Source: a virus
Taxonomy: Duplodnaviria; Heunggongvirae; Uroviricota; Caudoviricetes
IMG/VR virus record: IMGVR_UViG_2721755712_000001
Strand: one strand, 5' to 3'
Length of the DNA: 64,000 nt
Both the position numbers and the translations under genes were made by a program. The notes under the pieces were generated by a model. It made no database searches. It had not been told where the DNA came from and worked only from the letters and a program-made list of their open reading frames with translations. Positions 1-53,479 of the stretch are shown here, piece after piece; within the stretch, counting starts at the first letter, position 1, and each line of letters starts with the position of its first letter.

Positions 1-717
1 AAGCTCTGTGACATGATTGGTGGCGTATGATTTGGCCTCTTGCTCTATCATCGGTAATTCGTTAGCAATCCTGACCACCTTCCAAGCAAATTCCGCCATT
101 ACGCCATCACATGCCTTCCCAGCATCAATAACGATATGCACCAGATCCAACTGGCTTTTGCACATGTCGCAAAGAGACGCATACTCACTCTCTCTGATTA
201 CATTTACGGCATCATTAGCCCCTTTATTAAGCAAGACTTCCAACAGATTTTTCGGGGTAACGAAATCTGCTTTCAGAGATAATGTCTTTTCACCACTTAT
301 CGAACGCAAGTACTCTTCGTAGTTATTCTTCATCAAACCGCTGCTGCGCATTGCTAGAACTGCTTCTTGAATGGCCGCTTCAATAGTTTCGTCGTTTGAA
401 AGACAAAAAACGGTATTTGTGTAGATCACTTTTCCATCCATCCATGCACCAACCTGCACTTTAAGACTGAGCGGGTTTTCTTTGCTAATAAAAACAACTA
501 ATGCAGAACGCCGTGAACAAGAAGGTTCACCCCATACGTGTAACTCAACTTTCAGATAAGGTAGCCCTGGTAGCGGGATCTCGACCAAACGAGTGGCGAT
601 ATGATCCATTGCTGTTTTTACGGCTTTTTCAATGATGTCTAGCCGATTGCTCTCGCTGATTTCTAAACCAGTTTTATCAATGATGTCGCAGGCTAATTTC
701 TGAATTTCGTCTTTCAT
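1..717 (-). CDS. hypothetical protein, N-terminal portion only (C-terminus lies beyond window start)
   Basis: Open minus-strand frame from ATG at 715-717 (MKDEIQKLACDII...), GGAG ~8 nt upstream; no stop inside window. Plus-strand ORF 17..322 is its antisense shadow. Confidence 0.45.
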   Translation of the reverse strand, partial: MKDEIQKLACDIIDKTGLEISESNRLDIIEKAVKTAMDHIATRLVEIPLPGLPYLKVELHVWGEPSCSRRSALVVFISKENPLSLKVQVGAWMDGKVIYTNTVFCLSNDETIEAAIQEAVLAMRSSGLMKNNYEEYLRSISGEKTLSLKADFVTPKNLLEVLLNKGANDAVNVIRESEYASLCDMCKSQLDLVHIVIDAGKACDGVMAEFAWKVVRIANELPMIEQEAKSYATNHVTEL

Positions 718-795
718 ACCAACTCCTAGCTAACAGATGAAAGTATTCTCACAGAAAGATAAGTAATCATCTACTTATTTTAAAGGTGATTGTTA

Positions 796-1974
796 TCATA
801 GAGCCTTAATGCCCAAAACCTTGCTTTGTAACTCCAACTGCTTGGTATACGGTTTTGCCCGATAATAGGCTTTGATGATTTGCTCTGGCGTTGCATCGCC
901 CGGGTCGAGTCCTTCCTCGCCCAAACACGCCACTTTGACATTAAGACCAATACTGGTCAGTCGCCTGGCTGCGGCCATCGTATTACGTATAGCTTGCTTT
1001 TCACTATCCCACATCATGATCACATTACGTAACCCACGCGCCTTGAGCGTCAGGAACGCGCCTAACTGATCTTCTGCATCCTGAGTGGTGTTACCAGATA
1101 GATGCATCCCGAACGTTCCTATTGGTTCCACGTAATCACGTAATGTTTCTTCGTCAAAAATAGCTCGTTTAACCCCCATAACATCGAACGCCCCCTCACA
1201 GACAACTACAGTCTGTTTGCCGACTGCATTATGGCCGTTGTAGAGAAACTTACCTGAAGCTGGAAGCTGCATAGGAAAGAGGTAGCGGCGTTCTGCTGTA
1301 CCGGTAATGTCTCGTCCCTGAAATGTCTTCATTACCCCATCCAGATCGTAAACCGGTATCAGTATTCGCATATCGAATATCTGTCCTTTAACCTGATCTG
1401 TATACGGATCTACATAGGCGTGCTTACCTTCGACGCAGTATCGTAGGTCAAAATACTTTGCCATTTCAGGCGATATGTTTCGTTCAACCAGATAGTCTGG
1501 AAGACGGCCATCTATAGGAAGTTCGTAATGACGAGGGAGTGCAAGTGGTCCCTCTAACTCGACTGTGCTTGCAAGCACTATCTCTTCTTTCTTTGGTGCC
1601 CACCCCTGGGAAAGAAGGGCGTTCTGCACATATTCCTCGAACTGTCGTCGTGATTTGCCGCTGTAGTGCTTGAGGAAGACCAGCTTATTGAACTGAATCT
1701 CTTCGGGATGATCACCAGCGAAGCATTTACCGACGCCACTGGTCAGATTGAAATATACCTTCCAGTTGGAGCTGCCGCATACCGGACACTCCTTGATATT
1801 CACTTCACGACCGCGAGCACTCACGCCTCCACGTCGATAAACGATACCTTCAGTGTCCAACCATTGTTCAAAATCTAATTCGGTAATTAGCTCTTTCAGC
1901 TCGCTCACGATAATTCCACTTTTAATAGGCAATATTGTGACCAACCTAAATGTTGATATAACATAAAGGCTCAT
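796..1974 (-). CDS. DNA primase (Cys-rich zinc-binding region + TOPRIM domain)
   Basis: CPVCGSSNW...CFAGDH zinc-ribbon-like motif, then TOPRIM-like VVVCEGAFDVMG. Start uncertain: ATG at 1974, or GTG at 2046 (track start). Directly downstream of the helicase gene. Confidence 0.7.
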   Translation of the reverse strand: MSLYVISTFRLVTILPIKSGIIVSELKELITELDFEQWLDTEGIVYRRGGVSARGREVNIKECPVCGSSNWKVYFNLTSGVGKCFAGDHPEEIQFNKLVFLKHYSGKSRRQFEEYVQNALLSQGWAPKKEEIVLASTVELEGPLALPRHYELPIDGRLPDYLVERNISPEMAKYFDLRYCVEGKHAYVDPYTDQVKGQIFDMRILIPVYDLDGVMKTFQGRDITGTAERRYLFPMQLPASGKFLYNGHNAVGKQTVVVCEGAFDVMGVKRAIFDEETLRDYVEPIGTFGMHLSGNTTQDAEDQLGAFLTLKARGLRNVIMMWDSEKQAIRNTMAAARRLTSIGLNVKVACLGEEGLDPGDATPEQIIKAYYRAKPYTKQLELQSKVLGIKAL

Positions 1975-2055
1975 GTGTTTTTCTTTTGTGGTTTGGCAAA
2001 AGAAAAGTTGTTTCACCAATGAATCAAGCGTGGAGGTGTTCTCCACGCTTATTTT

Positions 2056-3396
2056 TTAGGTAACGTCTAAGATTCGCTCAATGAAGCGCATTTGTTCGAG
2101 GTTTTGTTTAACGCGAATGCTGATCCCTCCCTGCTGGTTACGTGAACCAGCAAAGTAGAGACGAGCCTCTCCTTTCGCTTCTTCTTCTTCTGTTTTGTTG
2201 ATCGTTATTACCAGGTCAGCAATACGTACTTTTTCGATGTTGTCGGCAGCGTGCATCATTGTGGCAACTTCTGACGCGCCACCTTCACGGTTTGTTTGCG
2301 ATGCTGTGATACCAGCAACGTTGTGTTTGTCATAAAGAGCACGTAAGTCGGTATAGATACTACGTATGTTGGCGCGATCATCACGAAGGTCATAACTGGC
2401 ACGCATCAAATCTGCATAGTCGACAACAACCATGTCAGGCACCATGCCATTGGCTTTCATGCTGTTAAGCATACGATCCAGATCTGCCGGTGACATACTT
2501 CCTGACGGACGCTCAACAACCCACAAACTACCAATCCCCTTCGTGGCTCCCAACTCTGCCAACTTACGATGAACCTCATCGCGCCGTTCCACCAGCTTGG
2601 ACATTTCTGTCTCCGACAATCTTGCATCAAAACGGTCGGATAAAATGGTGGTGTGAACCTCCAGCGAGAGATACAGAACATTGTAGCCAGCAAGCGTTGC
2701 GTTTATGGAAAACTCACCCATTGCGGTCGATTTACCGGATTTAGCGAACCCCATGAAGAGCACCATTTCACGCTTCGCCCAGCCTTTTTGGTACAGCAAC
2801 CTATCGAGCAGAGGGAGTCCAGTTGTAATGCTGTTTGGCACATACTCCTCTGAAGCCTCATATTCACGCGCTTTCAATCGCTCACTTGCGGAGGTGTAGT
2901 AGTCATAGATTCCGGTCGCTTCGTTCGATCCAATCTGCTGAACCTTGGCCATGATTGCCATCGCCCCCTGAAAGTCGCCCTTCTCTTTCAGTTCAGCAGC
3001 CTTAATCAGAGCATCATCAAACGCTACGCTTTTTGCGAAGGTTGATACCTGGTCAACCATGTACGAGGTATCAGACAATTTTTCTGCAAGGATGCGCTTA
3101 AACGCAGCAACAACATCGGCGAATAGTTCCTCACGGATAGTCTTATCGCGTTTCGCACGCTTAAGCATATCCAGAATCGCAGATGAAGAGGGCGCGCTCT
3201 TGTACATACGGTAATAGCCCGAAACCATATTAACCAATATGGCATTGGCCGCATTGGCAAATTGGCTAGGTACAACCAGATCTCCAGCACGAGTAAGAAA
3301 CTCGTGATCACGACAAAAATAGGCCGTCAATCTGTTCTGAAAATCTTCATCAAACTCTTCGGACAGCCCGCGTCCTGTATGGCAAAGTTCGGTCAT
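2056..3396 (-). CDS. DnaB-like replicative DNA helicase
   Basis: ATG at 3394-3396; Walker A GFAKSGKST; RecA-like C-terminal helicase architecture typical of DnaB/T7 gp4 helicase domains. Confidence 0.8.
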   Translation of the reverse strand: MTELCHTGRGLSEEFDEDFQNRLTAYFCRDHEFLTRAGDLVVPSQFANAANAILVNMVSGYYRMYKSAPSSSAILDMLKRAKRDKTIREELFADVVAAFKRILAEKLSDTSYMVDQVSTFAKSVAFDDALIKAAELKEKGDFQGAMAIMAKVQQIGSNEATGIYDYYTSASERLKAREYEASEEYVPNSITTGLPLLDRLLYQKGWAKREMVLFMGFAKSGKSTAMGEFSINATLAGYNVLYLSLEVHTTILSDRFDARLSETEMSKLVERRDEVHRKLAELGATKGIGSLWVVERPSGSMSPADLDRMLNSMKANGMVPDMVVVDYADLMRASYDLRDDRANIRSIYTDLRALYDKHNVAGITASQTNREGGASEVATMMHAADNIEKVRIADLVITINKTEEEEAKGEARLYFAGSRNQQGGISIRVKQNLEQMRFIERILDVT

Positions 3397-3660
3397 GTGC
3401 TTTCCTTTGTTTTTTAAACAAATTGTTTTCTAGTATTAGTTAATTAGATAGGGGATCAATAAACCGCCGTGCTTCTTCCAGTTCTTCTGGAAAGTGGGCG
3501 GAAATAAGGCGCTCTGGAACGATTTCCATTAGCCAGATAGCGGAGAAAATTGCGCGTATGCGCTTGCTGCGGGGGATGGTGCGTAAACGCTCCAGAATCC
3601 ACTCAAAATAGCTTTCCTGAATCGGGTTGAACTGCATGTCTCCCATATGCTTAAAGCTAA

Positions 3661-5728
<2,068 letters not shown>

Positions 5729-6255
5729 CCGTCGTGCAGCTGCGGAAAGAACGGTGGAGATAAAGTAGTCGTATGAGCAGCAATAGCGGTCAGCAAACTG
5801 GCGTGCTTTCCATAGAGACGTTTTATTGGCAGTCGACAACTCCTGATAAGGCAGGCGTTTTAACCCGGTGGTGAACGGAGCTGTTTCAAAGTGTTCGCGA
5901 CCGTGCGTCAGCATGATATTTGAGTACTGACGTTTGTATGCCTCCGTAAAAAGACAGGTGGCCATGAGAGGATGCATGTCGCGGTAATCAAACCACTTCG
6001 TCTCGAAGAGTTCAGCCTCATCTTTACAGCGCGACAAACCAATGTTTTCAGCAACCCACTTGTCCATAACAGCGGTATTCCACTCTGTCATGAAGTCGTA
6101 CTGGTTGTTGTCGATGGTATCGAAAAAGATTTGGCTCATGTGGCTCACCTGGTAGGTAGTTACTTACTTATCACGATGAGCGGATGATAGCGACTGGTGG
6201 CAGTTTTTGGAAGTGGAAACGGAAGGGAGTTGTTCTGGTGGTGTCTTTTAAAAGA

Positions 6256-6310
6256 CCTGCTTCCGTATATATTTAATAAGTTACTTATTATTTATATATA
6301 CAGAAGCAGG
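6256..6310. repeat. 55-bp AT-rich palindromic element, copy 1 (identical copy at 37562..37616)
   Basis: CCTGCTTCCGTATATATTTAATAAGTTACTTATTATTTATATATACAGAAGCAGG, identical at both sites; GC clamp arms CCTGCTTC/GAAGCAGG; centre TAAGTTACTTA. Confidence 0.85.
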
Positions 6311-6421
6311 CATAACTTGTCGTCTTAGACGCCCAGAAGCTCTACACTTTGAGCCTGTTAAATTGATTAAAAACTTATGTGTAAAATAGAACGCATTAGT
6401 CAGTAGCAAAGAGATGCAATA

Positions 6422-7189
6422 ATGGACGATTTATCGGTATACGCGAGATCATTGGATAAGGCTAAATACTATGTTTACTGCCTCTATGATACAGAAGACA
6501 AGATGAAAAGACCGTTTTACATAGGAAAAGGCAAATCGACTCGTTGTCTCGATCACATCAAGTATCCCGATGACTCTCCCAAATCCATGCGGATCAAAGA
6601 ACTTTTGGCTAATAAAAAATTAGGCATAGATATTCTTCGTCATGGTATGGATGAAACCACAGCCAAACTTGTTGAGGCGACATGCATCGACCTTATGGGG
6701 GTCGGAGAGCTTACGAATAAGGTACGAGGAAGTGGTTCCATGATGGGCAGAATATCACTGGACGCCTACCATCACTTAGTGCTGCAAGAGGAAACTGAAA
6801 TTGCTCCTGAGCACGCCGGTCTTGCCTTCCTGCTAAACAGCACCTACAAGTCAGGAATGTCCGCTCTGGCATTATATGAAGCTACGCGTGGCGTATGGGC
6901 AAAGGTTCCAAGAGACGAGAATCTCAAATATGCCTACGCTACATATGGTGGGCTAATAATGGAAGTTTATCAGATTGAATGCTGGGTCAAAGCCGGTTCT
7001 CAGCAGTACTTTACAAGGGATATAGCTCTTGGCCCCGACACAAAACGTTATGAATTTGTTGGCAGAATAGCCGATGAGCATATTAGAAAACTGTATGTAG
7101 GCAAATTAATCAAGAAGCCACCAAGCTACGGTAGCCCTTTTGTGAAGGTTGGGGTGGTTAGGACTGAACATAGTGTTAGCGCGGCATAA
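6422..7189 (+). CDS. GIY-YIG domain nuclease (possible homing-endonuclease-like protein) with uncharacterised C-terminal domain
   Basis: N-terminus YYVYCLYD...PFYIGKGKSTRCLDH fits the GIY-YIG motif; only plus-strand gene in a minus-strand neighbourhood; bounded by the 55-bp palindrome and a bidirectional terminator. Confidence 0.65.
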   Translation: MDDLSVYARSLDKAKYYVYCLYDTEDKMKRPFYIGKGKSTRCLDHIKYPDDSPKSMRIKELLANKKLGIDILRHGMDETTAKLVEATCIDLMGVGELTNKVRGSGSMMGRISLDAYHHLVLQEETEIAPEHAGLAFLLNSTYKSGMSALALYEATRGVWAKVPRDENLKYAYATYGGLIMEVYQIECWVKAGSQQYFTRDIALGPDTKRYEFVGRIADEHIRKLYVGKLIKKPPSYGSPFVKVGVVRTEHSVSAA

Positions 7190-7204
7190 AGCTGACACTG
7201 TAGT

Positions 7205-7237
7205 TATGCATTGGCGCAATGTACGCGCCAATGCATA
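7205..7237. terminator. bidirectional stem-loop terminator between GIY-YIG gene and partition operon
   Basis: Perfect 13-bp inverted repeat TATGCATTGGCGC / GCGCCAATGCATA, 7-nt loop, flanked by A/T runs. Confidence 0.6.
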
Positions 7238-7241
7238 ATTT

Positions 7242-7601
7242 TTAACCTTTCTTCATCAACTCTCGTTTGATTTCATCGGTACGCATCGTGACATCGGCAG
7301 CGGTGATCGCCTCATTCAATTTCACGATGTCCTCGATTTCCTGCGGTGACTTCTCTGCCAGATGGAAAATGGCTGCTCGAATCACGTCAGAACGAGTGAA
7401 CTTCTCGAAGCGAGGGATGAACTTCATCATCTCCAGCAGTTCGAAGTATTCGTCCTCCAGTGACATTGTGCGGCTTTTAATTTTCTCTTTGCCACGAGTC
7501 GGGCGTCCCTGTGGTCTGACTGGTTGGCGCAAAGGAGTTGTGTTCTTAGCCGGTGCATCAGGCTCTTTGCGCTTTGCTAGGTCACCCATTTTCATGGACA
7601 T
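7242..7601 (-). CDS. small partition-associated protein (ParG/ParB-like centromere-binding candidate)
   Basis: 119 aa, basic N-terminus; start ATG overlaps parA stop (ATGA coupling); GGAGG RBS. Confidence 0.45.
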   Translation of the reverse strand: MSMKMGDLAKRKEPDAPAKNTTPLRQPVRPQGRPTRGKEKIKSRTMSLEDEYFELLEMMKFIPRFEKFTRSDVIRAAIFHLAEKSPQEIEDIVKLNEAITAADVTMRTDEIKRELMKKG

Positions 7602-8269
7602 TATTCTTCTTCCTCCAGACTCAACAGATAATCTACAAATTCTTCAAACTCGGCTTCCGCCTTTTTGTCGCGCTCGCTACCGGTCATTTCAAAGATAGAA
7701 CGACCAGACTCTTCCGCATCATCATAGACGTTGCGGTTATATAGATTGACTGGCGCAGACTCGATTCCAAACGTCTCAACAATCTCTTTAGCCGCCAGAA
7801 TGCGAGACACTTGTGATGGCAAAGCCGGGCACTGGTTCATGACCGCGCGGACCTTCACTTTATCGTTTACATTGCGAACATTGTCGATAATAGGATCGAT
7901 GTCACGTAAAGATTTCAAATCACGACGCTTAGGACGCAGCGGGATAATGATAACGTCAGCCATCAGCATCGCTTGTCGCTGAATTTCGGAGTCGAAGCCA
8001 CCAGCATCTACCACTACAAACTCAGCTCTACCCTGAAGCGATTTTAGGTGCTTAATGATGTCATCCTGAACGTATGCAAAAGGAATCAGCTCAAGGTCTT
8101 CGTTCTGTCGACGGTCTTCACACCAGCTCGTTGTCGTGCGCTGAATATCTATATCGGTAATATAAACCTTCTTCTTCTTTTTGACTTTCAGGCAAACGGC
8201 AATTTGCTGGGCAACGGTGGATTTGCCAGGCCCGCCCTTTGTGCCGCCAACCACAAAGATCTTGGTCAT
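7601..8269 (-). CDS. parA: ParA/ParF-type partition ATPase
   Basis: Deviant Walker A GGTKGGPGKST near N-terminus; 222 aa, size of type Ib ParA. Confidence 0.85.
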   Translation of the reverse strand: MTKIFVVGGTKGGPGKSTVAQQIAVCLKVKKKKKVYITDIDIQRTTTSWCEDRRQNEDLELIPFAYVQDDIIKHLKSLQGRAEFVVVDAGGFDSEIQRQAMLMADVIIIPLRPKRRDLKSLRDIDPIIDNVRNVNDKVKVRAVMNQCPALPSQVSRILAAKEIVETFGIESAPVNLYNRNVYDDAEESGRSIFEMTGSERDKKAEAEFEEFVDYLLSLEEEE

Positions 8270-8300
8270 TGGAGAGTTCCCTTTGCGTATATAATTATCG

Positions 8301-8320
8301 TCTGAAACAACTTGTTTTCT
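8301..8320 (-). promoter_or_regulatory. class I operator-like palindrome (AAACAACTTGTTTTCTT) upstream of parA, next to a GATAAT -10-like hexamer
   Basis: Member of a recurrent AACAA-N-TTGTT motif family; here the ATTATCG element lies on the other side of the core than at the other sites. Confidence 0.4.
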
Positions 8321-8448
8321 TATATGTGATATAGCCTAAATGCCTACGGCTGCGGTGTAAAGGTTAAATGGTAGGTTGTGATTAACAATTGGCAATCATA
8401 GCTTGTATTTGTCTGTTGAAAAAAGTAACAATGACCTCTATATTACAA

Positions 8449-8467
8449 GTACGGTGATATGCCGTAC
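8449..8467. promoter_or_regulatory. palindrome GTACGG-N7-CCGTAC upstream of the TA operon (candidate antitoxin operator)
   Basis: Perfect 6-bp arms ~80 bp upstream of the antitoxin start; TA promoters are commonly autoregulated via such palindromes. Confidence 0.3.
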
Positions 8468-8548
8468 ACAATTTGATAATGCACACGTAATGGGCTATAG
8501 CCTTTTAAAGTAATTTTTGAGTCGAAAACTCAGTTTGAACAGAGGAGA

Positions 8549-8857
8549 TTGATGGCCTTCCTACATCACGGCCATCAGGAGGAATACATGTCAGCACTAA
8601 AAAAGCAGCGCATCGATTTGAGATTAACCGATGACGATAAAAGCATCATCGAGGAAGCTGCCGCAATGTCTAACCAGAGCATTACTCAGTTTATGGTTAG
8701 CAGTGCATCTGAACGTGCCGTGAAAGTTATAGAGCAACACCGTAGACTAGTTCTGAATGAAGAATCCTGGAATCTGGTTATGGACGCTATAAGCAATCCT
8801 CCGGCACCGAACGACAAGCTGAAACGAGCTGCTGATCGTCTGAAAAGCATGGAGTAG
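8549..8857 (+). CDS. DUF1778-type (TacA/AtaR-like) antitoxin
   Basis: Small protein directly upstream of the GNAT toxin; alternative starts at 8552 (AGAGGAG RBS) or 8588 (AGGAGG RBS). Confidence 0.7.
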   Translation: MMAFLHHGHQEEYMSALKKQRIDLRLTDDDKSIIEEAAAMSNQSITQFMVSSASERAVKVIEQHRRLVLNEESWNLVMDAISNPPAPNDKLKRAADRLKSME

Positions 8858-8864
8858 TTTACTC

Positions 8865-9386
8865 GTGAGCAATACAACGATAGAGATTTTCTCTGGAGAG
8901 AAAGATTATGATCTAAACGGTTTTGATTGCGGCGAAGAGTCACTAAACGCCTTTTTAGCCAACCACTTAAAAAGGCAGCATGAGGGAAAAATTCTTCGTG
9001 CTTATGTGCTTTGCACTCAAGAAGAAAGGCCAAAAGTGTTAGGATATTACACTTTGTCAGGTAGTTGTTTTGAAAAGGAGTCCTTACCTTCAAGAAGCAA
9101 ACAAAAGAAGGTTCCTTATCGGAATGTTCCAAGTGTCACTTTGGGTAGGCTGGCTTTGGACAAGTCCCTTCAAGGTCAAGGATTTGGCTCAATGCTTGTA
9201 ACACATGCAATGCGCGTTGTGTACAATGCATCTCTTGCTGTAGGCATTCATGGGCTTTTCGTTGAGGCGTTAAATGACAAAGCCAAGGCGTTTTATAAAA
9301 GTTTAGGCTTTATCCAGCTGGTTGGTAACAACGAGCGTTCTTTGTTCTATCCTACAAAATCTATCGAAAAATTGTTCGAAGAATAA
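8865..9386 (+). CDS. GNAT acetyltransferase toxin (TacT/AtaT-like)
   Basis: 173 aa; resembles AtaT/TacT as recalled (YDLxxFDCGEE, ILRAYVLC, SVTLGRLA, GIHGLFVEALN); GTG start with GGAG RBS. Confidence 0.8.
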   Translation: MSNTTIEIFSGEKDYDLNGFDCGEESLNAFLANHLKRQHEGKILRAYVLCTQEERPKVLGYYTLSGSCFEKESLPSRSKQKKVPYRNVPSVTLGRLALDKSLQGQGFGSMLVTHAMRVVYNASLAVGIHGLFVEALNDKAKAFYKSLGFIQLVGNNERSLFYPTKSIEKLFEE

Positions 9387-9418
9387 TGTGTTCCCCTCAT
9401 TTGAGGGGAACTTCGACA

Positions 9419-9634
9419 TCACCAACCACAAACCCTCTCTCCCATCGTATTGTGAAAAAGGATTTGGCGTTCGGTTTCTTCAGTCATTACATCATTATTG
9501 CTGATATAGATAGGCTCAGCCCCATCGCAGAACAACACGCTGGCTGTTTGTGGTTTAATGACGCACCCACTTATCATACAACTCACGATGAACGGCAGAA
9601 GCATCTTTCTGACGTATTTTACTGCTCGTCTCAT
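9419..9634 (-). CDS. o-spanin (Rz1-like outer-membrane lipoprotein), overlapping the i-spanin gene
   Basis: Lipobox-like ...FIVSCMISGC; ORF overlaps the 3' end of the Rz-like gene in another frame, the classic overlapped spanin arrangement. Confidence 0.5.
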   Translation of the reverse strand: MRRAVKYVRKMLLPFIVSCMISGCVIKPQTASVLFCDGAEPIYISNNDVMTEETERQILFHNTMGERVCGW

Positions 9635-9806
9635 TCACCACTTTCACTGTGTTTTGAAGTCGTTTTCTGTCTTCCTGTTTTGCCTTCTCTTCCATTGCTC
9701 GTCGCGCCGCATTCCCGCCCATCGTGTAAGCGCCGACAAGAACGAAAAGAACGGCAGCCAGCGTAATCAAAGCAACTTTTAGCTTTGTCATCAGGCTGCC
9801 TAGCAT
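9555..9806 (-). CDS. i-spanin (Rz-like) with N-terminal transmembrane segment
   Basis: 83 aa; N-terminal hydrophobic helix LKVALITLAAVLFVLVGAY then charged region; sits after the lysis enzyme gene. Confidence 0.55.
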   Translation of the reverse strand: MLGSLMTKLKVALITLAAVLFVLVGAYTMGGNAARRAMEEKAKQEDRKRLQNTVKVVNETSSKIRQKDASAVHRELYDKWVRH

Positions 9807-9807
9807 A

Positions 9808-10527
9808 TTAGACCATCCCTTTCTGGTGTTTTCTTACCTGCGACCAGGCAATGAATCCTGCCACAACAATAGTGGCAATACCGAAGATGATGCGTACTGT
9901 ATCCCCGCTAGAGATATGACCTTGTGCTTTATCCATAGCAGCGGAAACCTGCGGCATAACATCGGCCAGCTGCGCCAGACCAATACCTGCTGTAACAGTT
10001 GCGCCTGCGGTTTCTTTAGTTACAGGAACAGCCTTCACGGTTTTCACCGGCTTAACAACGCCAGCTCGACGCAGACCTTCCTCAATAACTTCTGCCGCAT
10101 ACCAGGTGTTCAGCGTTTTTAGCGGGCCTCGGCCATTCTCGTGGCGAATGATTGCCTCAACCAAAGGTCGAAGGATGTCGTAATCATGCAGATCGATGAT
10201 CATGTCTGCGGTTACACCAACGGCTTTAGACACCTCATTAATGTAGGCGTCAGTATTGTTTTCATTCGGCGGTGCCCAGCGTTCAATAACTTCACGAATG
10301 GTATCGATACTTGTGCCGTCTTTTGCGCGACGTTTGTCGTGGTAGGTAATTAGAGTCACCGCCAGCGCACGAATCCCCCAAACAGGGTCTTTAAACGTGC
10401 AAAAGCGCGGTTCGTCTGGATTCGCAACCAGACCTTGCCACGGTGATCCTTTATCAAGATTACCGGGGTTATTATTACGAATGCCTCTCGGAGTCTTCAT
10501 CCTTGATCTCCTGTTATTGCAGTCCAT
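9808..10527 (-). CDS. putative lysis enzyme / peptidoglycan hydrolase-like protein with C-terminal membrane anchor
   Basis: Position between holin-like and spanin genes; conserved-looking IRNNNPGNL...DPVWGIRA N-terminus; C-terminal hydrophobic segment IIFGIATIVVAGFIAW. Catalytic class not determined. Confidence 0.4.
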   Translation of the reverse strand: MDCNNRRSRMKTPRGIRNNNPGNLDKGSPWQGLVANPDEPRFCTFKDPVWGIRALAVTLITYHDKRRAKDGTSIDTIREVIERWAPPNENNTDAYINEVSKAVGVTADMIIDLHDYDILRPLVEAIIRHENGRGPLKTLNTWYAAEVIEEGLRRAGVVKPVKTVKAVPVTKETAGATVTAGIGLAQLADVMPQVSAAMDKAQGHISSGDTVRIIFGIATIVVAGFIAWSQVRKHQKGMV

Positions 10528-10837
10528 TTTTTACGCCATACGCGGCTAACCCCAAAAGCAGTGCAGTAATAATGAACGACGTTATTTTAGAAACAATGCC
10601 GCCAAAGAACCCACTGGAGATGGAATCTAACCGGTTAAGGAGTTTGTCCAGATTGGAGTGTTGAATACTATGTTGCGCCGGGGTCATATCACCAAAGTAG
10701 GTTTTCAGCTGATCATTGACCTCCTGGCCAATTTCTTCACGTAGCTCTTTACCTAATTTACCAACAACCTCCCGAGCAACGATCGCGGCAATACGCTCAA
10801 CTTGCTCTGTTGTAACGCCCGCCATCTCGTTCGACAT
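10514..10837 (-). CDS. putative holin / small membrane protein
   Basis: ATG at 10835-10837 with GGAGG 5 nt upstream; C-terminal hydrophobic stretch FFGGIVSKITSFIITALLLGLAAYGV; first gene of the lysis block. Confidence 0.4.
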   Translation of the reverse strand: MSNEMAGVTTEQVERIAAIVAREVVGKLGKELREEIGQEVNDQLKTYFGDMTPAQHSIQHSNLDKLLNRLDSISSGFFGGIVSKITSFIITALLLGLAAYGVKNGLQ

Positions 10838-11039
10838 GTTTTCCTCCATGAAAAGTCAAATCGGGATGGCGGATTTATATCACATTTCACCCTTTTGTTG
10901 TAGGTGTGTACTTACCTATCTATGTATATACCGTTTAACGGCTGTTCAAATTCGTATCTAGTAACTCACTAATATATCCCTATGATTGCGGCTGTGAGAT
11001 CGCATTTTAAACCTCACAGCCATATAAATAATGTCTAAA

Positions 11040-14000
11040 TCAGTTACTTGTTGCCCCAACAGTACCGGCAAATTTCAGCCATTGACCTGACGGACTTCTA
11101 TTACTGCGGTAGTGATAAACGAGGATTGCGTTTGTCACTCCACCGTAATCAGCTTTATGTGACGTTGTTAAACGAATTGTATAATCACCGTTAGGTAGAT
11201 TAAAAACTTCGATTATAGATTCTGCTAATTCTACAGCACCAAATCCCGTTATATTGTTGATACTGCCAGCATTGAATCCCATAGCATCGCCAAAGCCAAT
11301 CCAATATCTTTTGCTAAACGCCCCATTTGATTTAAGGTGGCTAATGAATGTGGACAAACTCATGCCCATATCCCCACCTGAAATAGAGGAAGTTCGCACA
11401 GTCATGCTTGGAAGAGCACTGCTCTTCACATAGGAACTTAGAAGATTCGTTACCTCTGTTTTCGTATAAGCATTAAGGTTAGCCGCAGTCAAAGTAATAT
11501 CGGCAGAGCCATCAAACGCCACACCAGCAATTTTCCTTGCTGTCTGCAATTTTGTGGCGGTTGCTGCATTGCCAGTTGTATTCTGATTGCCAGTGGCATT
11601 CACACCAGGAATGGAGTCCCTTGATGTATATACCTGCGCCCACGCTGACCATGCCGCATCTGTGGTATCTCTTCGTGAGCGAATGAAAACTGGCGCATGT
11701 GCACCGCTCGTACCACTCCAGCCAATAAGCAACTCGCCCTCACCAGCAGCACTCGCACCTTTCATGTGCAATACGTTGCCATACGTGGTCGGGTAGCTAG
11801 TGCTGTACGCCTCGTACATTTGAATGCCAGCAGTGCCTTGAGTAGAGCCGCTTAACGCCGTAACTCGGCCACGAGATACCAATGTATTAATATTGATATC
11901 GCCTGAACCATCAAACTTAACACCATTGATGTTTCTCGCTGTTTGCAACTTCGTAGCAGTAGCCGCGTTGCCCGTTGTATTCTGATTACCTGCCGTATTT
12001 ACACCAGGCAAATTTATGTTCGCAGATCCATCGAAGGCCACGCCGCCGATAGTTCTTGCAGTCTGCAATTTCGTTGCTGTAGCAGCATTTCCTGAAAGAC
12101 TTGAAATAAATGGATGTGAACAGTAATAACCTCGTCCATTTTTAAAGTCCAAAATTATCTGTGCATTCGTACTTTCTGATAAAGGATCAGTTGCCCCCCA
12201 CTTATAAGTGGTTTGACCAACTGCATAATCAGCCGTTGGAACAATTACGTTCAAGCCCTCCTCAGCAAATATCTTGATAGGGAATGCTCTGGCTTCAACG
12301 TAAAATACACTACACAAATCGTCATCTTTCACACTTGAAATAATCGAGTGTATAGCTCGCTCAGCAGTAGAATATATTGAGAAAAAACCAGCCGCATATG
12401 AACCGCGATCAGACCAACCGCCAGGCATAACAAACCCATTAAATTCACAATTATTCATGGCGTATCCGCCAACTGAGGAACCAGTAGTTATCACAACTCG
12501 TGAGGCTAATTCATCGGTACTGCCTCTAGATCGGCGAAAGACTATAGGATACCACTTACCGCTTACTGCATTTGCAGGCGCTGAAAAAGTGTATTTTCTC
12601 ATCCCTTTTTTATTGTCTATTTCGCTTTTGCTGTATACGTCAAGGTTCGCAGGAGTCAGCGTTATGTCCGCAGAACCATCAAACTTAACACCGTTGATTG
12701 TACGCGCTGTCTGTAGTTTTGTAGCGGTTGCAGCATTGCCGGTAGTGCTCTGATTACCAGCCGTATTAACACCTGGCAAATTAATATTCGCAGTACCATC
12801 AAAGCTCACGCCGCCGATAGTTCTTGCCGTCTGAAGTTTTGTAGCAGTTGCAGCATTACCAGTGGTGTTCTGATTACCCGTAGTATTTACACCTGGAAGG
12901 TTGATATTTGCAGAACCGTCGAAACCAACTCCACCGATAGATCTTGCCGTCTGCAATTTCGTTGCTGTACTTGCATTACCATTTAATGTTCCGGTGATAC
13001 CACCAGTAACAGACAACGGACCTGAAACTGTTCCTCCGGTTGTTGGCAGTGCTCCAATATCTAACGGCGTCGGTTTCTGATGTGTGCTATACATCGTATA
13101 AACAACACCATCGGTAACGCTGGAAGGCTTACTCGCTGAATATGTTGGCGATGTATAAATAGAAACTGACGCATTTGCAGTACAATCCCAATGGATATTT
13201 ACACTCGTCGCATAATTGCCAATTTCAACGTAAATATCATATGTATCGCCGGATGTGTTGATCCAGGCGAAATTCGCTAATCCGACAGCTGTACGCTTCC
13301 ACAAAGCACCTGTAATTCCTTTGGGGTTTCCATTGCCTGCTCGTAGAACCAGTTCTGAAATGCCTGCCTGATGTGGGGAACCGACGTTGTAACCAGCGCC
13401 ACCAATCAATGCGATGTAAACGATGGAACTCGCTTGTGGCATGGTAACCGTAGCCAGTTTGAACCACCCTGCCCCGCCAGAGAAAGACATCGTTACTGAA
13501 TTTAAAGTACCAATATCTTTCGGCGTTAATGTGATATCCGCAGTCAGTGCTTTTCCGTTAACTTTTCGGTTAGATGGCACCCTGCTATTCGCATTGTCAT
13601 TGGCTGCTTTAACTGCTTTTGGCGTTGCGGCCAGCGATTCACTGGTGCTGTCGACAGCACTGCTAAGTTTCACAACACCTTTAGTTGTAAGGCTTGCGTC
13701 TTCCATCGCAACTGCACCGGCAATCTCTTCAGCACGATCAGCAGCAGCTTCCGCACGGGTCGCAGCGGATTCAGCAGCAGTTTTGCTCTGAGATGCTGCC
13801 GTCGCACTGCCTGCCGCCTCTGTTGCTTTCGTGGATGCCGTCGTGGCGCTGCCCTTCGCTGCTGACGCCTGTCTGGTCGCCTCATCTTTTGAAGCAGACG
13901 CCGATGATGCCGATGACGCCGCCGAACTGGCGGACGATGCGGCTGCCGTTTTTGAGGATTCTGCACGGTTTTCCGACGCTTTCGCGTTCGTTTCGGATGT

Positions 14001-15068
14001 CTTCGCTGCGGAAGCAGACCTCGCTGCTGCGCTGGCCTGTTCAGTGGCTTGGCCAGCCTTCGTTGTGGCTGTTGAAGCAGACGATGCGGCACTTTCTGCC
14101 GATTTTCCGGCGGCGGTGGCACTGGCTGAGGCCTGCCCGGCACTTGTTGACGCGGCACTGGCAGACGACGCAGCCGCTGTTTTTGAGCCTGCCGCAGCCG
14201 AGGCGCTCTGTCCCGCTGCCGTTTCAGAAGACCTGGCGTTCGTCTCGGACGTTTTTGCCGCCTTCGCGGAATTTCCTGCCGCCGTTGCCGAGGAAGCGGC
14301 ATTACTGGCGCTCGAGGCTGCGCTCGTTTCTGATGATTTCGCTGCCTCTTTTGAGGCCGCCGCATCCCGGGCTGAGGTGGCAGCTTCTGACGCCTTCGTG
14401 GTCGCGGTGGATGCAGAAGTGGCTGCAGATTTTTGTGACGCTGCAGCATTCGTTTCAGATTTTTTCGCAGCAGTTGCACTCGCACTTGCGGCACTTTGTG
14501 AGGATGCCGCAGCGGATGCACTTTGAGACGCTTGAGAGGCTTTTTCTCCAGCGGCATTGGCGCTTTTTGCTGCTGCGGCAGCACTGGCCGCCGCCTCACG
14601 AGCTTTGTCGCCAGCAGCATCAATCGCGTCAGTGTTATTTTTATACCACTCAACGTTTTCGTTGTGCTCGTTGACGATCTGCATTAGCGGCTTAACGGTC
14701 ACTTCTGTACCGTCTTCACGCTCGATTGTCACCTCATCCAGCGCAGTCAACCAACTGCGTATGGACTTGGAATCAGCCGACATACGCGACATTAGCGCAG
14801 TAAAGCGCGCGCTAAACTGTGTTAAGTCGCCTTCATAGGTCGTAATGATTCGGCACGGAACCTCAGACTGAGTTTCGCCGGTATAAGGTTCTGAGAGAAC
14901 AATATTCGTATCGCTTATTACGCGCTTGATCTCGTACAGCTTATTGTCGGGGCCAATGACGATCATCCCCGGCAACACACCATTAGCTGTTACGTTCCAG
15001 GCTGTCCCTGCCCCAACCAGAGTATTGCTACCCTGTGTAAATGTGATAGTACCTTCCCTGTACCACAT
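11040..15068 (-). CDS. side tail fibre protein (lambda Stf-like) with Ala/Ser-rich region and tandem Phage_fiber_2-type repeats
   Basis: 1342 aa; long Ala/Ser-rich tract resembling the lambda Stf conserved region (as recalled); at least 5 copies of GN.ATATKLQTAR.I.GV.FDGS..I.LPGVNT. Confidence 0.85.
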   Translation of the reverse strand: MWYREGTITFTQGSNTLVGAGTAWNVTANGVLPGMIVIGPDNKLYEIKRVISDTNIVLSEPYTGETQSEVPCRIITTYEGDLTQFSARFTALMSRMSADSKSIRSWLTALDEVTIEREDGTEVTVKPLMQIVNEHNENVEWYKNNTDAIDAAGDKAREAAASAAAAAKSANAAGEKASQASQSASAAASSQSAASASATAAKKSETNAAASQKSAATSASTATTKASEAATSARDAAASKEAAKSSETSAASSASNAASSATAAGNSAKAAKTSETNARSSETAAGQSASAAAGSKTAAASSASAASTSAGQASASATAAGKSAESAASSASTATTKAGQATEQASAAARSASAAKTSETNAKASENRAESSKTAAASSASSAASSASSASASKDEATRQASAAKGSATTASTKATEAAGSATAASQSKTAAESAATRAEAAADRAEEIAGAVAMEDASLTTKGVVKLSSAVDSTSESLAATPKAVKAANDNANSRVPSNRKVNGKALTADITLTPKDIGTLNSVTMSFSGGAGWFKLATVTMPQASSIVYIALIGGAGYNVGSPHQAGISELVLRAGNGNPKGITGALWKRTAVGLANFAWINTSGDTYDIYVEIGNYATSVNIHWDCTANASVSIYTSPTYSASKPSSVTDGVVYTMYSTHQKPTPLDIGALPTTGGTVSGPLSVTGGITGTLNGNASTATKLQTARSIGGVGFDGSANINLPGVNTTGNQNTTGNAATATKLQTARTIGGVSFDGTANINLPGVNTAGNQSTTGNAATATKLQTARTINGVKFDGSADITLTPANLDVYSKSEIDNKKGMRKYTFSAPANAVSGKWYPIVFRRSRGSTDELASRVVITTGSSVGGYAMNNCEFNGFVMPGGWSDRGSYAAGFFSIYSTAERAIHSIISSVKDDDLCSVFYVEARAFPIKIFAEEGLNVIVPTADYAVGQTTYKWGATDPLSESTNAQIILDFKNGRGYYCSHPFISSLSGNAATATKLQTARTIGGVAFDGSANINLPGVNTAGNQNTTGNAATATKLQTARNINGVKFDGSGDININTLVSRGRVTALSGSTQGTAGIQMYEAYSTSYPTTYGNVLHMKGASAAGEGELLIGWSGTSGAHAPVFIRSRRDTTDAAWSAWAQVYTSRDSIPGVNATGNQNTTGNAATATKLQTARKIAGVAFDGSADITLTAANLNAYTKTEVTNLLSSYVKSSALPSMTVRTSSISGGDMGMSLSTFISHLKSNGAFSKRYWIGFGDAMGFNAGSINNITGFGAVELAESIIEVFNLPNGDYTIRLTTSHKADYGGVTNAILVYHYRSNRSPSGQWLKFAGTVGATSN

Positions 15069-15161: not shown

Positions 15162-18100
15162 TCACAGACGGCCAATTCTTACTCGTAAGACGTTGTTATC
15201 GTCATAAACGTCAATCCGCTGACCATTTATAACCAATCGCCCATTGCCGCCGCTATTACCGTTGATCTCAAGCGTTCCATTTTTGCCGAACCGCCATCCA
15301 GATCTACCGCTAACAAAATTGGTAGATTGCAGATCGCCTACTTTTGCATTGGTGATTGTGCCATCCTTGATATACGCTCCATTCATATAGGCGATACTGT
15401 TTTCGATAACAAATGGCGTTGTGATCTTCCCGTTAACAGAGTTGACCAAACCAAACCTGTCCGCCTGAACCAAAAACTGAGATAGCCCAGTGGTGTCAAT
15501 ACCAAGCGCAATACCGGCAACATACTTCTGCCCTCCGCTCGTTGAAGTCTCCATTTTCAACGTCCACGCGGTTGATACTTTTTTGTTGGTATCAGCAATA
15601 GCTGTTGCCTGCTGTTGAATTGTCGCGGTATTTCCATCCACCTCTGCTTTCAGAGTATCGATTCGCCCACTCAGAGCATTATCTGCCTGCGTTCTCGCTG
15701 TCGTTTCAGTTGTTACCGCCGCGGAAATGTTGGCTGCCGTTTGAGACTCTAAGTTTGTGATTTGAGTCGCCAGTGCCGCATCTTGCTCTGTACGCGTTTT
15801 CGTTTCGGTTGCTACAGCCGCTTTAATATCCTCTTTGTATTGAGAGGTCAGCTTGGTGATCTGAGACGACAACGCCGAGTCAGCATCAGTTCGAGCCTGC
15901 GTTTCAACTGCAACGGCCGCACTAATATCTTTCGCAGTCTGTGCTTTTAAACTTGAAACCTCTTTTGTTAAAGCGGTATCACCATCTGCACGAGCCGTTG
16001 TTTCTCTGGCAAGAGATGCCTCAAGATCATTAGCTTTTGCTGTAAGAGACGTAATCTGAGTGGACAATGCACTATCGGCATCAGTCCTTGCTTTTGTCTC
16101 TACAGCAACCGCTGCGGCAATATCAGTTCCGGTTTGTGCTCGCAGGCTGTTAATTTCTCGTGAGAGCGCCTGGTCAGCACTTGCTCTGGCCTCCTGCTCC
16201 TGAGTGATGGCAGCGGATATATCACCGTCAACCTTTGACTGAAGCTGGTTTATTTGTTTGGCTAACGCAGAGTCCCCGCTTGCTCGGGCCTCCTGCTCAC
16301 TACGTATTGCAGCAGAAATATCATCATCAACCTTTGCCTGAAGTTGGGTGATCTGGCTTGCCAGAGCCGAATCTTCCGTTGCTCGGGCTTCTTGCTCTTC
16401 CTTAATAGCTGCGACGATATCGTTGCTTACTTTCGACTCAAGCTGAGTGATCTGTGTCGTCAGAGCTTCATCGGCAGATGTACGAGCCTCCTGCTCTGTA
16501 CTAATCGCCGCGCTGATATCTCCTTCAAACTTAGATTGCAGCTGAGTGACACGCTTTGCCAACGCTTCATCGCCATCGGCACGAGCGGTGGACTCTTCCA
16601 GAATACTGGCCTTAATGTCTTCGCCAATTTCTACGCGAATTTCCTCAACCTTCGTGGCCATTGCAGACATATCATCAGCAAAGGTTTTCTGTGTTGTTGC
16701 GATCTTCGCGTTATTGACCATCTGCTTGTGCTGGTCTTCATCTTGACGAAGAGCCAGGTCAATATTTGTTTTGGCCAACGCCTCAATGTTCGTAGTCAGT
16801 TCTGCACTGGCACGATCGACCTCTGCAACCGTCTTTTTCATTTCTTCAACGGCAGCGGAGCTTTCCTCTACCGTTGACTGCAACACTTCCAGTTGTTTAG
16901 CGTTTGCAGCATCGCCTTCAACACGAGCCTCGCTTTCCTTAGCAATAAGAGCCGCCGCTTCATCTCTTGCAGCCTTTATTGCCTCGACTGTATTAGCGAG
17001 AGCTTTATCGTGTTCAGATACGGTGTTTTCGATTTCAACAATTGCAGCATCAGTAGCATCAATTTTTTCAAACGCTTCATTGACCTTGTCGATCGTTGCC
17101 GAAACCTCACCTTTAAGCTCGGTTTGTGCGTTCTCCAAAGCATCGCTACGCTCGTTGAATTTTATTTCAAAATCCGCGAGGTTATCGCTGAACTGCTTAT
17201 CTAATTCAGCTATATCTTCCTTAACGTCGTTTACCGACCCCTCCAAAGATTCGACGCTCTGGTTGATATGCTCATTTAACTCGTCAACTGCTTCTTGAGA
17301 GGCTTTGCTGTTGATGTCCTCAAGCAGAGCCTGACCAAGCTCGGAAGATGTAATTTTGCCAGTCAGGAACGACAGTACATCGCGAGTTGTCGCCTCTGTA
17401 CCCAAGTTTGAGTTCGGAGGACTTAACATACCTCGCTTGTTCGATGCTCGAACCCAGTAATACCACGTTTCGCTATCCCCAAGACCAGCATGTGTAAAGG
17501 TGGTGCTTGCAGACTCTGCGATCAGTTTCGCCGTATCCAGATTGTTGGTCTGGGATGCGTAAACATTAATGTGATCAAGGTCCACCGAATCTGGATTAAC
17601 CCAATTCAGTATCACATTACGATAGTCTCCAACGGCCGTTAATGACGTTGGTGCATCCGGCGGTGTCATTGTGCCCAGCACCTGATAAACGGTACTGATA
17701 ATTTCTGTTTTTTTACCGTTGAATGAAACCGCATACAGTTGGAAGTCGTAGCGTCCATTCTCCGCGACATTAACGATTTCGTATTGCTCTTCGGTTACAC
17801 GCGCCGATTGCCAGTTCGATACATTGTTTTCATCAGAACGTCGCCAACTGATCCAATACTCTGGAGATTTCCCTTCCCATGTTGCAGTCAGTTTTACTGA
17901 CAGGTTGCCAGGGCTTGAGAGATAAGTCCCTTCGGTGATTTGCAAATTAGACGGCTTGGAGTAAGTCGGGTCCAATACCGTCGTATTTTGCGGGATAAGC
18001 GTTGCACCATTGTCGATCGCCTCATATTTAGACGGATTGTTCTCAACAGCGGTGATGTCAAAGCTACCCGGCGTTTCCCCCTGCGCGATGTTAACGATGC

Positions 18101-37561: not shown

Positions 37562-37616
37562 CCTGCTTCCGTATATATTTAATAAGTTACTTATTATTTA
37601 TATATACAGAAGCAGG
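37562..37616. repeat. 55-bp AT-rich palindromic element, copy 2 (identical to 6256..6310)
   Basis: Identical over 55 bp to copy 1, with similar imperfect flanks; lies between the wHTH gene and the terS regulatory region. Confidence 0.85.
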
Positions 37617-37916: not shown

Positions 37917-38807
37917 TTATGCCGGTAAAGCAATTTCTAACGGTTTATCCAAAGGTTGTTTGTCGAATGCCAGCAGTGGCAGCGTGTCAGGCAGCCGACG
38001 ACCAAAGTCAGGGTTTCGGTACACACCATACAACGGAGACGTAAAGCTCAGGTTGTGAATGTCCTTGAGCAGCTTCACAATGCTGGCCTCGTCCACCAGA
38101 CTGTCGGCAATGTCCTGAATCGTCGTGCCACGATTCCGCCCAGCTTTTGCCAGGGAACTGTTCTTGTGGTAGTCCGCTACCAGATCACGCAGTGCACGGC
38201 GACGACGAGACTCGCTCATTGCGAACAACTCTTTGACGATCGCCTCGTTATCACCCGGGTCGGAACGGAAATGGCGCTGGAATACACGCAGTGCACTTTC
38301 ATAGCTCTTCGGTCGCTCAGGGCGGATGAACTTAAACCCTGCTTTCATGGCGAAGGGATTGTATTTGCTCATCGAGGACTGGATCTCAATGATTGGCCGG
38401 TCATGCATCCTGCTAACCAGGTTAATCATTCGATAAGAGACGCCTACGCCACGATACTGAGTATCCACAACTGAGCGACTGATCACCGCAAAGTTGTTAT
38501 TCACGTACCGACCCCAGTACTGGTTAGCCACGGTGGTATTAGTGGTTGGTTTCAACTTAGGAAACATGCGGTGGCGAGGTGCCAACAGTAGTTTCGGGTA
38601 AGCCATAACCACGACGCCCACCAGACGGTCATCAAGTTCGCAGCGATAGTAAGTTGGCGCGAAAGGTTTGCCGTCTGTTTTGTAGTGAAGCGACTTAAGA
38701 GCGTGCCAGTCCTCTACAGTTCCCTTTGTGACAGTCATTCGCTCCAGAAAGTCCAGATGACGCGGAAACTCTTCAGGGCGGTAGCGTTTAATGATGATGT
38801 CCGTCAT
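37917..38807 (-). CDS. GNAT-fold acetyltransferase-like protein
   Basis: 296 aa; motif VVDTQYRGVGVSYRMINLV resembles GNAT motif A; start overlaps the ATPase stop (ATGA). Confidence 0.45.
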   Translation of the reverse strand: MTDIIIKRYRPEEFPRHLDFLERMTVTKGTVEDWHALKSLHYKTDGKPFAPTYYRCELDDRLVGVVVMAYPKLLLAPRHRMFPKLKPTTNTTVANQYWGRYVNNNFAVISRSVVDTQYRGVGVSYRMINLVSRMHDRPIIEIQSSMSKYNPFAMKAGFKFIRPERPKSYESALRVFQRHFRSDPGDNEAIVKELFAMSESRRRRALRDLVADYHKNSSLAKAGRNRGTTIQDIADSLVDEASIVKLLKDIHNLSFTSPLYGVYRNPDFGRRLPDTLPLLAFDKQPLDKPLEIALPA

Positions 38808-40814: not shown

Positions 40815-40833
40815 TTTATTGCTACAATCCACT

Positions 40834-53364: not shown

Positions 53365-53376
53365 TTCAACCACTCC

Positions 53377-53445: not shown

Positions 53446-53479
53446 GCTTGTGTAAATCAGGAGGGATTGTGTCTATATG

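Follow-up and report, generated by a model that had tools for sequence, protein, structure and literature searches.

The 64,000 nucleotides (nt) of tailed-phage DNA analysed here, referred to below as the window, contain at 7242-9386 a ParA-type partition gene pair standing next to a toxin-antitoxin gene pair. The element is very probably a phage-plasmid of the SSU5/pHCM2 family, a temperate siphovirus that persists as a prophage in the form of a circular, low-copy plasmid of about 110 kb, and the region would be its maintenance corner, made up of the par and toxin-antitoxin genes. The initial annotation had proposed that a tailed-phage genome here carries a maintenance module of plasmid style, and the location of the region in Escherichia coli agrees with this: megablast of positions 6400-9500 against 5,426 complete E. 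coli genomes gave 302 matching places, all 302 of them on plasmids and none on a chromosome. The plasmids concerned are about 105-120 kb in size, with 69 records at least 99% identical to the region. Both the type of element and the region itself are already known, as SSU5/pHCM2-type phage-plasmids have been catalogued and hundreds of sequenced plasmids carry the region, together with Cyrano/pLF82 (99%).

Identity of the element and the metG-apbC segment

The two ends of the window behave in the same way as the maintenance region. Positions 52000-64000, which comprise metG and apbC together with a type I restriction-modification system, are covered by the same E. coli plasmids at 98-99%, and positions 1-6400 match them as well, except for one inserted insertion sequence (IS). 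The whole window is collinear with positions 30,518-93,524 of pYLMB53a, a closed circular plasmid of 112,732 bp with repA at 1-1056, and this collinearity includes metG, apbC and the type I restriction-modification genes. The two sequences differ in an IS100 insertion (3775-5729) that pYLMB53a lacks, in the tail fibre, of which pYLMB53a has another allele, in the tape measure and in a few small cargo changes. For the lineage, the comparisons indicate a circular replicon outside the chromosome, about 100-120 kb in size; a 64-kb window does not show in which state the element exists in this isolate.

In the phage collection, Escherichia phages Cyrano and CMS-2020a match the par/toxin-antitoxin region at 98-99.8%, with Cyrano being 99.3% identical over 7244-10900, and the DNA of parA and its partner gene is 86.5% identical to that of Salmonella phage SSU5 and about 80% identical to that of Klebsiella phage-plasmids. 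These values uphold the earlier suggestion of an SSU5-like phage-plasmid. In the plasmid collection, the parA-partner DNA is present in 736 records (702 of them non-mobilizable) from Klebsiella, Escherichia, Enterobacter, Salmonella, Citrobacter and Cronobacter. An SSU5-like siphovirus gene set in conserved order is seen in the annotations of both the collinear plasmid and SSU5/Cyrano, comprising terminase, portal, capsid, tape measure, tail tip, tail fibre, holin, endolysin and Rz. Primase, helicase, the parA-partner pair, a cargo slot, the lysis genes and the tail fibre follow each other in the same order in Cyrano, SSU5 and pHCM2; Cyrano in addition carries the toxin-antitoxin cassette and the metG of the window, whereas SSU5 and pHCM2 hold other genes in the slot that is occupied by the toxin-antitoxin pair here. 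Among the phage-plasmids to which the initial annotation had likened the element, it is the gene set and order of SSU5/pHCM2 that recur, while the small ParA is unlike the type Ia proteins of P1 and N15.

SSU5_pHCM2 is a phage-plasmid group described by Pfeifer et al. (PMC7969092). Cyrano is pLF82, the plasmid prophage of E. coli LF82, and has a copy number of 5.5 per cell; its virions were demonstrated by quantitative PCR and electron microscopy, ciprofloxacin induces it, and its lysogens express the KacT-type toxin, its antitoxin and the gene corresponding to the ParA partner (PMC9928086). By analogy with this 99%-identical phage, for which both properties are published, virion production and plasmid maintenance may be expected of the element in the window.

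The initial annotation had the element abut chromosomal metG and offered three ways out, namely an integrated phage-plasmid, a prophage with acquired plasmid modules or an assembly junction. The premise shared by these three fails, as the window is collinear with a circular plasmid across this stretch. In E. coli, metG-apbC (53526-56817) is found at 222 plasmid places with at least 95% identity, while the chromosomal copies, at 5,429 places, are only 80-95% identical to the copy in the window. The two genes also occur in the phage records Cyrano, CMS-2020a and PhiR41_1, and in pYLMB53a and pSCMY1 they have phage-plasmid genes on either side. Because this metG-apbC allele is plasmid-borne at so many places, the chromosomal copies are more distant and pYLMB53a is collinear, the change of sequence at about 53.46-53.53 kb reads as an old cargo boundary common to the lineage. 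The segment itself is an old capture, now lineage cargo on the plasmid, which supplies a second metG (methionyl-tRNA synthetase) and a further copy of apbC/mrp. That the element is instead integrated in the chromosome beside metG, or that a phage-chromosome assembly junction lies at about 53.5 kb, is hardly conceivable: metG and apbC are normally chromosomal housekeeping neighbours and every E. coli chromosome matches the stretch at 80-95%, but the plasmid allele is clearly closer, the stretch has phage-plasmid DNA on both sides in closed circular plasmids and phage records, and none of the 5,426 complete genomes has the par/toxin-antitoxin region on its chromosome. For the lineage this alternative is effectively refuted, and nothing in the window is chromosomal. 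A literature search found no paper linking SSU5 with metG. That metG and the toxin are specially linked, AtaT having first been reported to act on Met-tRNAfMet, was considered and rejected as unsupported, with metG at 222 plasmid places against 263 par-bearing plasmid records, of which 73 have the toxin-antitoxin pair.

The parA operon, its partner and candidate cis sites

The parA gene (7601-8269, minus strand) encodes a partition ATPase of the small type with 222 amino acids (aa). The deviant Walker motif GGTKGGPGKST reported in the initial annotation is present at residues 8-18, with the deviant Walker A box KGGPGKS starting from K11, and the protein is devoid of an N-terminal DNA-binding extension. 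Its Pfam matches are MipZ, AAA_31 and CbiA, and in PHROGs it belongs to phrog_164, the ParA-like partition protein (E 4e-51). The best solved relatives are ParF of TP228 (4dzz) and 5u1g, with E 1.2e-10 over residues 9-199, followed by MipZ; the alignment with ParF runs from residue 9 of the window protein and covers ParF residues 8-189. Because of its size and its relatives, the protein is placed closest to type Ib ParF, and it is part of the conserved backbone of the family. Small ParF-like (type Ib) ParAs pair with small non-ParB partners, whereas type Ia ParAs have about 400 aa, carry an N-terminal regulatory domain and are paired with a large ParB or SopB. The type Ia systems ParAB-parS of P1 and SopAB-sopC of N15/F are similar to the proposed system in that a low-copy plasmid prophage is segregated by a Walker-type ParA; they differ from it in the size of the ParA (222 aa here) and in the partner, which in the window has 119 aa and no ParB_N domain.

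This partner gene (7242-7601, minus strand) lies directly downstream of parA, with its ATG overlapping the parA stop codon (TAATG) and a GGAGG ribosome-binding site upstream. The product is read here as a putative centromere-binding and ParA-activating protein. The initial annotation had described a small DNA-binding protein coupled to ParA; the coupling stands, while the recognition as a DNA-binding protein is not confirmed, no Pfam domain being found. Residues 1-45 form a basic disordered linker region of pI 11.4 with the conserved N-terminal motif MGDLAKR, and the remainder is an acidic (pI 5.0) helical C-terminal domain with the ribbon-helix-helix-like pattern SRTMSLEDEY...FTRSDVIRAAI. The same organisation is seen in alignments of the family: an N-terminal motif (MGDLAKR, GGLGKK or MAGLAKQ), a variable basic linker, IKSRTMSLEDEY...FTRSDVIRAAI and two more helices. 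The N-terminal motif and the RSDV-RAA helix are kept among homologues down to 17-31% identity. The protein corresponds to phrog_5111, a PHROGs entry without a function label, and its relatives amount to 25 clusters among 5.8 billion proteins and, in an exhaustive profile search, to 19 representatives among 1.84 billion, none of them an annotated relative. By these searches it is a very narrow orphan family.

Narrow as it is, the family follows parA closely. The partner was found with parA in every homologue examined, from Klebsiella to Xenorhabdus. A small gene overlapping parA on its downstream side accompanies all of the ParA homologues at 43-55% identity from Xenorhabdus, Providencia and Moellerella elements, a non-phage Pseudomonas syringae plasmid and Agarivorans, and the small products of P. 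syringae and Agarivorans carry the same N-terminal motif and C-terminal pattern. On the P. syringae plasmid (contig RBUQ01000238.1) the pair adjoins a replicase gene. In Agarivorans, the 43%-identical ParA and its similar small partner are encoded on the chromosome (AP023033.1, locus 6001-6979) between a PilZ gene and hslVU. Since this is a core chromosomal neighbourhood, members of the ParA clade may do jobs besides plasmid partition.

The fold of the partner was approached through distant similarities. Neither phmmer nor a profile search against the Protein Data Bank (PDB) gave anything below E 0.4, and hhalign found no similarity to ParG (E 0.53). A weak hhalign match to CopG (P 0.02) has the expected helix-loop-helix register; the CopG and ParG sequences used were exact PDB matches. 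The partner furthermore has a sub-threshold match to the ribbon-helix-helix protein aCcr1 (E 2.3e-4), and two distant homologues match RHH_3 (E 0.009) and RHH_1 (E 0.11). These similarities point weakly to a ribbon-helix-helix-like C-terminal domain, through which the partner may bind DNA. Compared with type Ib systems (ParF-ParG-parH of TP228, par2 of pB171 and delta-omega of pSM19035), the pair shares a small ParA without N-terminal DNA-binding domain, a small downstream partner with a flexible basic N-terminal tail and a dimer-like, possibly ribbon-helix-helix C-terminal domain, and candidate cis sites upstream of parA. It differs from them in that the partner forms its own narrow family without detectable similarity to ParG, in that no short iterated repeat array is present and in that its function is read from sequence.

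Two other identities were tried for the partner and rejected. An assignment to ParB/Spo0J finds no ParB_N match in the 119-aa protein. The orthologue in Cyrano (CYRAN_29; locus 3499-3858) is labelled a RelE/ParE putative toxin, but 16 family members gave no RelE/ParE match in Pfam or NCBIfam even at E <=10, and no PDB sequence match. This annotation is probably wrong, and the gene is better read as a ParA partner. Downstream of the partner gene, a perfect 14-nt inverted repeat (TTATGCATTGGCGC, seven nt, GCGCCAATGCATAA) followed by TTTTT on the plus strand occupies 7204-7238, between the ends of the convergent GIY-YIG gene (7189) and partner gene (7242). It is probably a terminator between the two, and it is not kept in SSU5, which has a different gene directly next to the partner gene.

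Upstream of parA lies a conserved block (8270-8376, minus strand) which is a candidate for promoter, operator and centromere. Its core at 8303-8364 has 60 of 62 columns invariant among seven phage-plasmids from Escherichia, Salmonella, Enterobacter and Klebsiella, and the 107-bp block as a whole shows 86-96% identity, against 77-85% for the parA coding sequence. The core includes the palindrome AAACAACTTGTTT (8305-8317), which is located 36 nt from the parA start directly after a -10-like TATAAG hexamer (8318-8323, minus strand). Homology to all relatives without the toxin-antitoxin pair ends at 8370-8379. In the more distant Xenorhabdus, Providencia and Moellerella elements, the region upstream of parA is too diverged for its alignment to inform. 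The block is the best centromere/operator candidate of the region, and the layout in P. syringae is that of a partition operon with cis sites: there, the parA-partner operon lies between two copies of a 16-bp palindrome, TAACTTAyGTAAGTTA (RBUQ01000238.1, locus 2955-2970 and 4005-4020; 2 sites against 0 expected), and the upstream copy is separated from parA by about as many nt as the palindrome in the window. These 16-bp palindromes are a good candidate for a centromere of the partner family.

The palindrome of the upstream block is not confined to it. Allowing at most one mismatch, the 13-nt palindrome AAACAAnTTGTTT occurs 12 times in the window, against 0.5 copies expected, and 15 times in the whole of pYLMB53a. 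The copies in the window start at 3416, 8305, 37485, 37510, 47522, 48007, 48757, 49660, 50144, 51338, 53378 and 53429 and are usually extended to ...TTGTTTTCTTnTnnGTG. Each precedes a minus-strand start codon by a few to about 40 nt, and the genes concerned include the helicase, parA, the terminase operon and many small early genes. An exact copy is present in the Providencia element, and a partial, similar sequence in that of Moellerella. The dispersed palindrome looks like a phage-wide promoter/operator unit. It is a speculative and rather unlikely idea that the partner founds a new centromere-binding family and also regulates the phage-plasmid genome-wide by binding these palindromes; if so, partition and the silencing of phage genes would be coupled via the partner, a situation comparable to KorB of RK2, omega of pSM19035 and SopB of N15. 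More conventionally, these sites would be bound by a separate phage repressor. A different, AT-rich long palindrome of 55 bp (CCTGCTTCCGTATATAT...ATATATACAGAAGCAGG) occurs twice, in copies that are 100% identical and lie 31 kb from each other: one is beside the GIY-YIG gene (6256-6310) and the other upstream of the terminase operon (37562-37616), and both are found in pYLMB53a as well.

The toxin-antitoxin pair and its slot

The par pair and the toxin-antitoxin pair are divergent across 8270-8587. The antitoxin gene (8588-8857, plus strand) encodes an 89-aa protein of the TacA family (DUF1778), with a match to Pfam PF08681 TacA1 at E 5.7e-26; the toxin gene (8865-9386, plus strand) starts with GTG 7 nt after the antitoxin stop codon and encodes a 173-aa GNAT aminoacyl-tRNA acetyltransferase. 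The divergent DUF1778 antitoxin and GNAT toxin beside the lysis and tail-fibre genes were thus correctly described in the initial annotation: the four open reading frames (ORFs) are as given there, and the strong family matches show that they are not chance ORFs. An upstream TTG at 8549 would extend the antitoxin to 102 aa, but RefSeq and PDB alignments favour the ATG at 8588. The antitoxin aligns end to end with KacA (5zgn, E 6.6e-42) and AtaR (6ajm, E 1.3e-40), and the toxin aligns without gaps over residues 1-172 with AtaT of E. coli O157:H7 (6gts, E 1.4e-79) and KacT of K. pneumoniae (5zgn, E 3.9e-75), its matches to GNAT Pfam families having E values from 5e-8 to 3e-5. Salmonella TacT structures are only distant matches of the toxin (E ~1e-11). 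The label "TacAT-like" given previously therefore holds at the level of the superfamily, and AtaRT/KacAT type, among the type II systems, is the precise one.

The toxin keeps QGQGFG at 102-107 (the acetyl-CoA loop) and a tyrosine at position 144 in an FYKSLGF motif; the catalytic residue of AtaT is Tyr144. Gene order and spacing are likewise those of AtaR-AtaT and KacA-KacT, from which the pair differs in being a distinct allele, roughly three-quarters identical by eye, and in residing on a phage-plasmid and not on a chromosome. AtaT acetylates the amino group of aminoacyl-tRNAs, namely Met-tRNAfMet and those for Gly, Trp, Tyr and Phe (PMC7595197). The specificities of GNAT toxins are reported to evolve (PMC9177977).

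The initial annotation treated the par and toxin-antitoxin genes as one module, and this does not hold. Comparison by blastn with seven relatives delimits an accessory cassette at 8377-9421 (plus strand) which consists of promoter, antitoxin, toxin and terminal hairpin and which fills a slot flanked by the parA upstream block and the lysis genes. Homology to SSU5, pHCM2, plasmids of Enterobacter hormaechei and K. pneumoniae and an E. coli plasmid lacking the pair extends from about 7240 to 8370-8379 and resumes at 9418-9437. In SSU5, E. coli CP062854 and E. hormaechei, the slot is filled by two unrelated genes on the minus strand (phrog_3307 and phrog_2594), in pHCM2 and K. pneumoniae by a single gene on the plus strand (phrog_28020), and in the Xenorhabdus relative it is empty. 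This gives at least three alternatives across the family (retrieved loci L001, 4635-6124; L002, 4631-6056; L007, 3639-4464; L009, 3627-4499), and the alternative genes have no Pfam match. In the plasmid collection, the toxin-antitoxin half of the region is covered in only 142 of the 736 matching records. From these comparisons, the pair is an exchangeable accessory cassette in a cargo hotspot, and the par pair a part of the family backbone.

Within the cassette, the toxin-antitoxin operon has a predicted sigma-70 promoter, TTGAAA-17-TATATT (8416-8444, plus strand), identified by its 10 of 12 consensus matches. Short inverted repeats follow it, GTACGG n7 CCGTAC at 8450-8468 and GGCTATAGCC at 8493-8502, which could be the operator of the antitoxin. 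The right end of the cassette is marked by a G+C-rich hairpin (GTTCCCCTCA, two nt, TGAGGGGAAC; 9390-9411) between the toxin stop codon and the convergent Rz1 stop codon, which is terminator-like on the minus strand.

Proposed maintenance and the surrounding genes

A model of how the region may work combines a type Ib-like partition operon, which belongs to the family backbone, with the exchangeable cassette. ParA-ATP dimers would bind the nucleoid non-specifically, and the C-terminal domain of the partner would bind a cis site on the plasmid, most likely in the near-invariant block just upstream of parA. The conserved basic N-terminal tail of the partner (MGDLAKR...) would stimulate the ATPase of ParA, and the resulting ParA gradient would separate sister plasmids. 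Binding of the partner at the cis site would probably also autoregulate the par operon. In the cassette, a labile antitoxin would neutralise the toxin and repress the toxin-antitoxin operon, while a stable toxin would acetylate charged tRNAs and block translation. This difference in stability is the proposed reason why plasmid-free cells would be poisoned, i.e. why addiction by post-segregational killing could occur. The exclusion of other phages is a further possible role of the pair.

A number of points weigh against this model. No Pfam domain was found in the partner, 16 family members searched at E <=10 giving noise only, and its AF2 monomer model (pLDDT 67) matched no known fold in fold searches. 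The NCBIfam family ParA_partition covers the full-length ParA at 115.7 bits, which is below its equivalog cutoff of 180 bits. An iterated centromere repeat array beside the par operon is absent from 7100-9500, which holds only short two-copy matches at chance level, and the palindrome of the upstream block may belong to a phage-wide regulator and not to the partner because 11 other sites in the window carry it. The literature searched contains no experiment on this par system. Concerning the cassette, 72% of the E. coli relatives in complete genomes lack the toxin-antitoxin pair (73 of 263 carry it), and at about 5 copies per cell, a figure taken by analogy, a need for the pair as an addiction module may only be assumed. 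Finally, two ParB_N/Srx proteins encoded 31 kb away are possible partners of ParA.

These two adjacent proteins with a ParB N-terminal domain (39466-40832, minus strand) lead to an alternative in which ParA works with them, or serves in a non-partition phage function, and the 119-aa protein is a mere regulator or toxin. Their presence in the window, the partner having no recognised DNA-binding domain and the RelE/ParE label in the Cyrano record speak for it; we nevertheless consider it quite improbable. It is the small gene that overlaps the parA stop codon and accompanies parA in every homologue examined, and the P. syringae plasmid locus has the pair with no ParB_N gene called within the 6.6 kb examined. 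A ParA of the small ParF-like type pairs with small non-ParB partners, and the 119-aa protein matches no RelE/ParE profile at any threshold tried. The ParB_N genes, for their part, have an ABC-like ATPase and a helicase as neighbours and are a few kb away from the packaging (terminase) genes. As an observation on that segment, the two ParB_N genes and the gene of the ABC-type ATPase (38804-40832, minus strand) are located between the packaging genes and a DEAD-box helicase, and the ATPase weakly matches mad3/mad8 of PADLOC.

A second question is the role of the cassette. It is possible, although we find it doubtful, that the pair serves mainly in lysogenic conversion or defence (abortive infection, stress tolerance) and not in plasmid addiction. 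The cassette occupies a slot that exchanges cargo, a PD-T4-3-like defence gene is nearby, and most relatives lack the cassette yet are maintained as plasmids; in Cyrano lysogens it is among the most highly expressed genes and is classed as a moron (PMC9928086). On the other hand, the PADLOC defence models matched neither the toxin-antitoxin proteins nor the alternative slot genes, and placement beside a partition operon is classic for plasmid stability regions. Addiction and defence can also coexist.

The genes on either side of the maintenance region are those of the family. To the right, the Rz1/Rz spanins (about 9419-9806), the endolysin (9808-10500), the holin (10514-10837) and a 1342-aa tail fibre (11040-15068) are identified by homology with annotated Cyrano and SSU5, the lysis genes sharing about 82% identity with SSU5. 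The part of the window most divergent from pYLMB53a is the tail-fibre region. The tail-fibre gene contains repeats of 113-197 nt (11497-12980), and four tandem 99-nt repeats are found inside a 1577-aa tail gene (16149-16544). To the left, the GIY-YIG protein (6422-7189, plus strand) matches the PADLOC anti-phage model PD-T4-3 over its whole length (E 1.3e-23), which places a defence gene next to the maintenance region; in SSU5 and pHCM2, its place is taken by other genes. Further left, the IS100 insertion (IS21 family, istA/istB) splits a conserved hypothetical gene of 246 aa into the ORFs 3440-3808 and 5672-6148, and no database record matches an insertion at the same site.

Towards the other end of the window, a 409-aa ORF (51704-52933, minus strand) without Pfam or PADLOC match is situated in a 1.4-kb segment that is absent from pYLMB53a and present in pSCMY1, where the gene is annotated as hypothetical. 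Beyond metG, the annotation of the collinear plasmids gives a HumD/UmuD-like S24 peptidase (56855-57244) and then a complete type I restriction-modification system with M, S and R genes (57946-63990).

What is gained for the family are corrections: metG is to be read as plasmid cargo, the toxin-antitoxin pair as an exchangeable cassette and the "RelE/ParE toxin" of Cyrano as a ParA partner. SSU5/pHCM2-type elements are reported to spread antibiotic resistance and to be common in clinical Enterobacteriaceae. The partner, the conserved block and the palindromes make a reasonable small experimental target.

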